DNA of 64,000 nucleotides from Bdellovibrionales bacterium. Its GTDB lineage: Bacteria; Bdellovibrionota; Bdellovibrionia; Bdellovibrionales; UBA840. The notes under the pieces are model-generated. The model saw only the letters and a list, made by a program, of their open reading frames with translations. It was not told the origin of the DNA and ran no database searches. Within the stretch, counting starts at the first letter, position 1, and each line of letters begins with the position of its first letter. This document shows, piece by piece, positions 25,261 to 25,512 of the stretch. Both the position numbers and the translations under genes were made by a program. The stretch covers positions 2,110 to 66,109 of the forward strand of contig JBGCGH010000048.1 of NCBI GenBank assembly GCA_045110695.1, given 5' to 3'.

Positions 25261-25512
25261 TTCGCTCAGGCGCCGCTGGGCTTATTCTTTTATTGTGATA
25301 TTTGTGGTGGAAATGAGCGTAATCCTCAGATGTGTGTGAGCTCCCTCATGCTCAAACACGCGTTCTTTTCGCTCAGGCGCCGCTAGGCTTTTTCTTTAAC
25401 TGTGAATCTTTGTTGTTGAAACGGGCGTAAACCTCAGATGTGTGTAAGCTCCCTCATGCTCAAACACGCAACTGCGCGTGAGGGAGCTTACACACATCTG
25501 AGGTTTACTCTT
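25261..25512 (+). repeat. Intergenic modular repeat, copy C (tandem: module + half hairpin, then module + perfect 30-bp hairpin)
   Basis: TTCGCTCAGGCGCCGCTGGGCTTATTC is at 25261-25287 and TTCGCTCAGGCGCCGCTAGGCTTTTTC at 25368-25394, a 107-bp period. A left arm without a partner sits at about 25321-25348. Perfect 30-bp arms are at 25427-25456 and 25479-25508, with apex TGCTCAAACACGCAACTGCGCG. Confidence 0.95.

Follow-up and report, generated by a model that had tools for sequence, protein, structure and literature searches.

An Intergenic Repeat With a Conserved Loop on a Sequence-Free 33-bp Hairpin in a Bdellovibrionales Genome, a Possible Double-Terminator Cassette

A family of intergenic repeats is described here from a 64,000-nucleotide (nt) stretch of DNA of a Bdellovibrionales bacterium (GenBank assembly GCA_045110695.1, contig JBGCGH010000048.1, positions 2,110 to 66,109 of the forward strand), which is referred to throughout, at its full length, as the window. 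Four complete units (A, on the minus strand, and B, C2, and D) and two truncated ones (B0 and C1) lie at four loci; each complete unit spans about 153 nt and consists of a terminator-like segment of 27-28 nt (module (i)), a T-rich spacer of 29-32 nt, an 82-nt hairpin, and a T-rich tail (Table 1). The family is related in kind to the REP/BIME, BOX, and Correia repeats but differs from them, and from SPRITE, in that the loop and the length of the stem are conserved rather than the stem sequence, and in that a second mini-terminator stands upstream of the hairpin. The reading tentatively favored here, with a probability of about 45%, is that of a lineage-specific, duplicating cassette that would provide a double terminator, or an RNA 3' end, and would be SPRITE-like in its action.

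Family Architecture and Conservation

A dispersed, modular family had been recognized at four named loci by the initial annotation, and the modules it described are present at all four, in numbers far above chance. With up to three mismatches, module (i) (GCTCAGGCGCCGCTGGGCTTTTTC) occurs four times in the window versus 0.00 expected, a fifth copy being that of unit D, at 53163, which carries a 1-nt insertion; the apex of the hairpin (CTCARACACGCAACT) occurs five times versus 0.12 expected, with a sixth, truncated copy at 25351. An nhmmer search with a whole-unit profile returned the four complete and two partial units and nothing further in the window. The layout of the units was also as annotated, except that the loci of B and C turned out to be compound, which had been missed: B0 directly abuts B, and C1 directly abuts C2. 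Units C1 and C2 share 88% identity over 103 nt, and B0, whose left arm is 54% identical to that of B (counted by eye from the sequence), is matched both by nhmmer (E = 3.6e-06) and, on 15875-15896, by the hairpin covariance model. Units A and D, separated by 51 kb and facing in opposite directions, have 94% identity across 111 nt. This near-identity at a distance, together with the tandem partial copies C1/C2 and B0/B, shows that the family has spread by duplication. The tail after the hairpin contains TCTTTCTTT in three of the complete units (A, C2, and D); in B it contains TTTTCC.

Table 1. Positions of the repeat units and of their segments in the window.
Unit	State	Strand	Span	Module (i)	Spacer	Hairpin	Tail
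A	complete	-	1854-2006	2006-1980; stem broken by an A·A pair	1979-1950	1949-1868 (82 nt)	1867-1854 (T-rich)
B0	partial; GAACGT, left arm, and apex	+	15841-15899	none recognizable		right arm missing	
B	complete	+	15900-16054	15900-15926; 6-bp stem, -9.4 kcal/mol, then T5	15927-15958	15959-16040 (82 nt; one C·U mismatch)	16041-16054
C1	partial	+	25261-25367	25261-25287; stem intact	25288-25318	25319-25361 (left arm and 5' half of loop; right arm missing)	missing
C2	complete	+	25368-25522	25368-25394; stem broken by a C·A pair	25395-25426	25427-25508 (82 nt; 32 Watson-Crick pairs and one U·G)	25509-25522
D	complete	+	53160-53312	53160-53187; 8-bp stem via 1-nt insertion, -11.2 kcal/mol	53188-53216	53217-53298 (82 nt; three C·U mismatches)	53299-53312

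The long hairpin had been annotated with arms of 26-30 bp; the hairpin is there, but its stem in fact comprises 33 bp closed by a 16-nt loop, a more regular arrangement that measures exactly 82 nt and aligns without gaps in all four complete copies. Folding energies of the complete hairpins range from -50.7 to -63.6 kcal/mol, with z-scores of -11 to -14. In the ungapped alignment, 95.5% of the pair cells hold standard pairs, versus 64.8% in shuffled controls and 30-51% in slid registers; both sides have changed at 28 of the 33 pairs, and none of 500 shuffles reached either the paired-cell or the changed-pair value. Five pairs are invariant: pair 1 is always G-C, pairs 25, 29, and 33 are always C-G, and pair 31 is always a U·G wobble. 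Compensating swaps (A-U to G-C and G-C to A-U) distinguish B from the other copies at pairs 30 and 32, on either side of this wobble, and within the A/D class one compensated change (U-A to C-G) is accompanied by one change from G·U to A-U. Every non-pair of the stem places a C of the 5' arm opposite a U/T of the 3' arm (pair 10 in B; pairs 9 and 18 in A; pairs 9, 18, and 28 in D), a pattern that might reflect biased mutation or serve in recognition; the mismatches of the A/D class are spaced 9-10 bp apart, roughly one helical turn. The invariant wobble and the stronger fold of copy A in the sense than in the antisense orientation (-52.4 vs. -47.1 kcal/mol) point to a hairpin that acts as RNA, or as single-stranded nucleic acid, of the element strand. 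By our own count, the arms are 46-61% G+C, in a region of about 36-45% G+C.

The annotated division into three unrelated arm classes (A and D; B; C) with a conserved apex is borne out by segment-wise alignment, in which arms of different classes are 38-52% identical, the level of random sequence. Between C2 and D, module (i) agrees at 26 of 28 positions, the spacer at 61%, the arms at 41-52%, and the 26-nt apex at 26 of 26, as it does between C2 and the A/D class generally; between B and C2, the corresponding values are 26 of 27, 64%, 38%, and 20 of 26. Comparison across classes thus finds saturation in the arms and in most of the spacer, with module (i), the loop, and the closing pairs conserved. 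In the single class formed by A and D, the spacer has changed faster than the paired arms: module (i) agrees at 24 of 29 positions (83%), the spacer at 74%, the arms at 89-93%, and the apex at 26 of 26 (100%), and the rise from spacer to arms to apex is the pattern expected from purifying selection on the hairpin. Together, the saturation between classes and the slow arms within one class argue for a stem that is selected for pairing and geometry and for a loop and a module (i) that are selected for sequence. Unit C2 is a mosaic, in which the apex variant is as in A/D and the pre-hairpin motif (GrGCGT) is as in B, and this hints at an exchange of sequence between units.

Certain short motifs recur between and within the modules. 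The 5' half of module (i), GCTCAGGCGC at 15903-15912, differs only by G/A transitions from the start of the apex, both in C2 (GCTCAAACAC, 25458-25467) and in B (ACTCAGACAC, 15990-15999), the common form being RCTCARRCRC, and CTCA/TGAG tetramers are also found where the spacer ends and in every arm class. These motifs may be the recognition motif of one protein, or a coincidence.

The initial annotation had not recognized the repeat as any named element, and no Rfam family was matched when the whole window was searched against Rfam 15 at gathering thresholds, and relaxed thresholds returned only sub-threshold microRNA-precursor models, which are generic to any long hairpin. A gapped pattern running from module (i) to the apex gave 48 single chance matches in GTDB genomes, all in unrelated GC-rich taxa, and nine chance matches in JGI metagenomes, mostly inside genes. 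In IMG/VR, an 18-mer of the apex was not found and module (i) had one chance match in GC-rich DNA; when the units were compared with phage and plasmid collections by BLAST, nothing meaningful was returned.

The Terminator Reading and Its Alternatives

Module (i) had been likened to an intrinsic terminator, a likeness that holds for some copies and fails for others. It passes an intrinsic-terminator scan, at -9.4 to -11.2 kcal/mol, in the three copies that lie closest to a co-oriented stop codon (B, C1, and D), the insertion in D serving to extend its stem; in A and C2, the mismatched pairs are uncompensated and the fold collapses. Neither of these copies has a gene end to serve, A having no co-oriented gene upstream and C2 being the second of a tandem pair. 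The placement of B, C, and D had been given as 5-25 nt after the stop codons of plus-strand genes and measures 6-24 nt: D starts 6 nt past the stop at 53154, C 24 nt past the stop at 25236, and B0 24 nt past the stop at 15816, all co-oriented with these genes, and A is antiparallel to both of its flanking plus-strand genes. Between the stop codon and module (i), no other terminator-like site was seen at B or D, and only a weak 5-bp candidate was seen at C. The long hairpin is followed by a C-interrupted, T-rich tail, and its 16-nt loop lies beyond the limits of the terminator scan.

Related lineages were represented by about 124 kb of sequence from five lineages (L059-L068) in Logan, TARA, and JGI assemblies, in which the gene order Abhydrolase, epimerase, SpoU, TrmO, RibD, HPPD, PIF1, and 5'-nucleotidase is conserved; the 5'-nucleotidase of the window is 100% identical to a protein listed at NCBI under 'MAG: Bdellovibrionales bacterium', and that of the next relatives is 64-69% identical at the protein level. 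Neither nhmmer nor the hairpin covariance model found a homolog or a structural analog in this sequence, so that the family belongs specifically to the lineage that the present genome represents. Orthologous gene ends could be read after the 5'-nucleotidase gene in L059 and L060 and after the epimerase gene in L060. The former carry a 17-bp stem with a T-run (L059) and an 11-bp stem with T7 (L060), the latter an ordinary terminator, and none carries the element, which thus occupies sites where, at the readable spots, relatives have plain terminators. Given these plain terminators, and given that loci B and D have no other terminator and C only a weak one, termination is the best-supported function. 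The three functions initially suggested were a mobile or recombining terminator cassette, a structured RNA family, and the binding site of a hairpin-binding protein; the first gains most from the syntenic relatives, although its mobile part finds no mobilizing enzyme in the window.

Under the favored terminator-cassette reading, a polymerase leaving the upstream gene would first meet module (i), whose 6-8-bp GC-rich hairpin and U5 would form a modest intrinsic terminator, and about 30 nt further on the 33-bp hairpin with its U-rich tail, which would serve as a fail-safe terminator and would give the transcript a very stable, exonuclease-resistant 3' end. The cassette, having multiplied at distant sites and in local tandem partial copies, would have replaced native terminators. 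Selection on the stem concerns pairing and length only, the stem sequences having drifted or been exchanged to the point of non-homology, and the loop, the five closing pairs, and module (i) are under selection for sequence. A putative trans-acting partner would read the loop; this partner could be a protein, possibly the mobilizer of the element, or an RNA.

Several points weigh against this account. Termination needs no 33-bp stem and explains neither the 16-nt loop nor its conservation, and the terminators found in this genome and its relatives have stems of 11-17 bp and loops of 3-10 nt; it is these unexplained features, stem length, loop size, and strict loop conservation, that imply a trans-acting reader of the loop. 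Nor is the run of U residues downstream of the long hairpin continuous: it reads UCUUUCUUU in units A, C2, and D and UUUUCC in unit B. Copy A is wrongly oriented for terminating either of its neighbors, and the OPT-transporter gene upstream of it has a canonical native terminator of its own (1660-1694); co-orientation at three of four loci is not statistically significant with four loci. Neither a mobilizing enzyme nor a target-site duplication was seen in the 64-kb window, and the evidence comes from a single contig of one metagenome-assembled genome.

According to an unlikely alternative, the units are structured regulatory RNAs, either stand-alone or derived from 3' untranslated regions, with the 82-nt hairpin as the functional molecule. 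The 16-nt loop, which starts with a YUNR-type CUCA, would then be a pairing seed or the dock of an RNA-binding protein, the stem a rigid spacer, and module (i) an insulator from the upstream gene. The conserved loop and closing pairs (26 of 26 between C2 and A/D) atop sequence-free, fully covarying stems are in keeping with such a role, as are the invariant U·G wobble, the preference of copy A for its sense fold, and the retention of the apex in B0 despite the loss of the right arm. There is also precedent for conserved loop motifs on variable stems in small RNA families such as CsrB/RsmZ and the cuckoo RNAs (PMC4615179). Against this reading, a promoter in the spacer was ruled out, as no sigma-70-like site is found there and no convincing sigma-54 or extracytoplasmic-function pattern was seen by eye, and a working module (i) terminator would block cotranscription with the upstream gene. 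Moreover, no complement or target of the loop was found in the window beyond the elements themselves, no Rfam family matches, and a 33-bp perfect duplex is a substrate of RNase III, unusual for a trans-acting small RNA.

Less probable again is a reading at the DNA level, in which the element folds as a single-stranded DNA hairpin whose loop is recognized or cleaved by a hairpin-specific enzyme encoded elsewhere in the genome (an HUH/Y1 enzyme such as a RAYT or an IS200/IS605 TnpA, a rolling-circle Rep, or a recombinase) and in which terminator activity is incidental. The conserved loop and variable stems seen here would suit an HUH enzyme, since the usual target of this group, for example at the origins of CRESS viruses and rolling-circle plasmids, is of just this kind. 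The dispersal of the copies in both orientations, their tandem partial copies, and the mosaic make-up of C2 (apex from A/D, pre-hairpin GrGCGT from B) would likewise be in order, and clustering in intergenic regions with insertion next to existing copies is typical of REP/BIME and pneumococcal repeats (PMC10969869). However, no transposase, integrase, reverse transcriptase, HUH/Y1, or Rep domain was recognizable among the roughly 60 open reading frames (ORFs) scanned in the window, nor was a RAYT gene found among them; the stem sequence is unconserved and has no GTAG-type REP signature; and no target-site duplications, terminal inverted repeats, or defined ends were seen in the units. The 33-bp stem also far exceeds known HUH substrates, and in DNA the invariant U·G wobble, like the C·U mismatches, would be mismatched on either strand.

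It is doubtful that the units are neutral or selfish palindromes, with arms kept paired by intramolecular template switching (quasipalindrome correction) and with a loop and a module (i) that merely seem conserved through recent ancestry or gene conversion. Only six units are known, from one contig, two module (i) stems are broken, B0 and C1 resemble palindrome-stimulated deletions, and the units are related as mosaics, all of which such an origin would accommodate. Uniform recent ancestry, however, cannot explain why arms at 38-52% identity accompany, between the same units, an apex at 26 of 26 and a module (i) at 93-96%; the exact 33 + 16 + 33 geometry across three unrelated arm classes and the elevated G+C content of the arms relative to their surroundings also tell against it. 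Very improbable, finally, is a new class of hairpin RNA or single-stranded DNA in which a fixed scaffold (the 16-nt loop, the U·G wobble, and the 33-bp length) would present a programmable duplex; a dedicated loop-binding protein would read or process these molecules, and the arms, more than a mere spacer, would carry information, for example as guides or captured sequence. Such a scaffold-plus-variable-duplex system would be without a described bacterial counterpart.

Other candidate explanations were tried and rejected. Arms copied from, or antisense to, sequence in the window are contradicted by longest exact matches outside the elements of 9-10 nt, versus 9.9 in shuffled sequence, and by the lack of any match in the phage collections. 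A peptide encoded by the apex (MLKHATAR... in A, C2, and D) has no ATG in B, its frames end differently, and no ORF is common to the copies. The geometry of the rigid 33-bp helix forbids a pseudoknot between the pre-hairpin UGAG and the CUCA of the loop. Birth of C1 and B0 by nested insertion into a hairpin loop would predict orphan right arms downstream, where only 7-mer resemblances were found. A CRISPR array does not fit at most two units per locus, a conserved part of about 85 nt, and a variable part duplicated in inverted form, and a retron msr/msd does not fit the lack of a reverse transcriptase domain or the nature of the downstream genes, which encode an SpoU methylase and two proteins without a Pfam match.

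Genomic Surroundings of the Units

The window is housekeeping chromosome, with genes for an OPT transporter, an epimerase, the SpoU and TrmO methyltransferases, RibD, HPPD, a PIF1-like helicase, a 5'-nucleotidase, enzymes of pantothenate and coenzyme A synthesis, and LeuRS. The two Pfam-less proteins encoded downstream of units have N-termini that, judged by eye, resemble signal peptides. Unit C lies at the left edge of a rearranged segment (25652-31621), in which about 6 kb, including panB, panC, coaBC, coaX, and panD, separate the 5'-nucleotidase gene from a Na/Pi cotransporter gene; in L067 (11381-12195), a single small gene lies between the same two. Elsewhere, a minus-strand ORF of 2497 aa (5567-13060) has no Pfam domain at E <= 1e-5 and is matched in syntenic position by a 2098-residue ORF in L059, and two tandem paralogous genes of the PLDc_2 (phospholipase-D-like) family lie on the minus strand at 56658-58415 and 58513-60177.

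A native terminator of symmetric form, A7-CCGAGC-GGTA-GCTCGG-T6, stands between two minus-strand ORFs at 13271-13302. The interval between the OPT-transporter terminator and unit A contains a hexamer microsatellite (1690-1800) of about ten TTTTAC followed by about seven TTTTAT repeats. Homopolymers occur 40-46 nt beyond the hairpins, as a run of about G9 after B (16085-16093) and as C7 followed by T8 near A (1823-1838), and these could be slippage-prone tracts. Three short motifs also recur close to the units, none of them individually significant: ACAGTTTGGATA downstream at 16064-16075 and 25574-25585 (E = 0.048), AAATAGAGTYGAT at 15860-15872 and 53351-53363 (two found vs. 0.39 expected), and ATTGTGATTTT(T/A) at 25608-25619 and 53331-53342; they may be decayed fragments of older units.

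Significance and Relation to Known Systems

Should the terminator-cassette reading prove true, the family would stand beside SPRITE as a second case, from a phylogenetically distant group, the predatory-bacteria phylum Bdellovibrionota, of a genome that swaps native terminators for a self-propagating terminator cassette, and as the first case in which it is the loop, and not the stem, that is conserved. This inverted conservation points to a specific loop-recognizing factor, the identity of which could reveal how repeats without a transposase spread, a question that is unsolved for SPRITE, BOX, and many REP-like families. An exact 33-bp, sequence-free helix with a constant loop would also constitute a clean natural scaffold for RNA engineering, although the practical weight of the family is limited by its being known from one contig of one uncultured organism.

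Miniature inverted-repeat transposable elements and similar repeats (Correia/NEMIS, ERIC, and BOX) are, like the present units, non-autonomous intergenic repeats of about 100-200 nt with stable RNA folds that can affect termination or expression, and BOX shares their modularity. Such elements have conserved terminal inverted repeats and target-site duplications, whereas the inverted arms are here internal and unconserved; membership was rejected, as the unit ends (TTYGCTCAGG... and ...CTTTNTTGG) are not mutual inverted repeats and the flanks of A and D show no duplication. Integron attC sites likewise fold as single-stranded hairpins directly 3' of genes and conserve structure over sequence. 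In attC, however, it is the stem base, with its R and L boxes and extrahelical bases, that is conserved and the center that varies, and the sites accompany mobile cassettes and an integrase; with the conservation pattern inverted, syntenic housekeeping genes as flanks, and no integrase in the window, the units cannot be assigned to them.

REP, BIME, and REPIN elements are comparable as short intergenic palindromes, often downstream of genes, that are mosaic, form tandem or inverted clusters, and have roles in mRNA 3'-end stabilization and termination (compare PMC3184786 and PMC12306157). The initial annotation had called the architecture the opposite of both REP/BIME and attC, and rightly so: REP conserves the stem and varies the loop or linker, whereas here the loop is conserved and the stem sequence is free. 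In addition, the present stems are about twice as long and have no GTAG-type 5' signature at their base, and this, together with the low identity of the arms between classes (38-52%), excludes membership. Canonical intrinsic terminators share with module (i) of B, C1, and D a GC-rich hairpin and a T-run a few nucleotides past a stop codon, but they form no repeated sequence families, and their stems (11-17 bp) and loops (3-10 nt) differ from the 33 bp and the conserved 16 nt seen here.

The closest functional analog is SPRITE of Streptococcus pneumoniae, an interspersed repeat with an 18-bp duplex, longer than in native terminators, and a U-rich tract; its copies are concentrated just past coding sequences, at their 3' ends, and co-option as a terminator has been proposed (PMC3049150). 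SPRITE is found clustered with, or inserted beside, other repeats, and its mobilizing enzyme is unknown (PMC3049150; reviewed in PMC10969869). Both families are small intergenic repeats that combine an over-long duplex with a U-rich tract at the 3' ends of coding sequences (here at three of the four loci), and a stem of 33 bp beside native terminators of 11-17 bp places the present family in the same functional class. The likeness is one of function only, and no homology is claimed: SPRITE has an 18-bp stem and is defined by a hidden Markov model logo, taken here as a sign of conserved stem sequence, whereas the family described in this work combines a 33-bp, sequence-free stem and a conserved loop with an additional mini-terminator module upstream, in a host of a different phylum.

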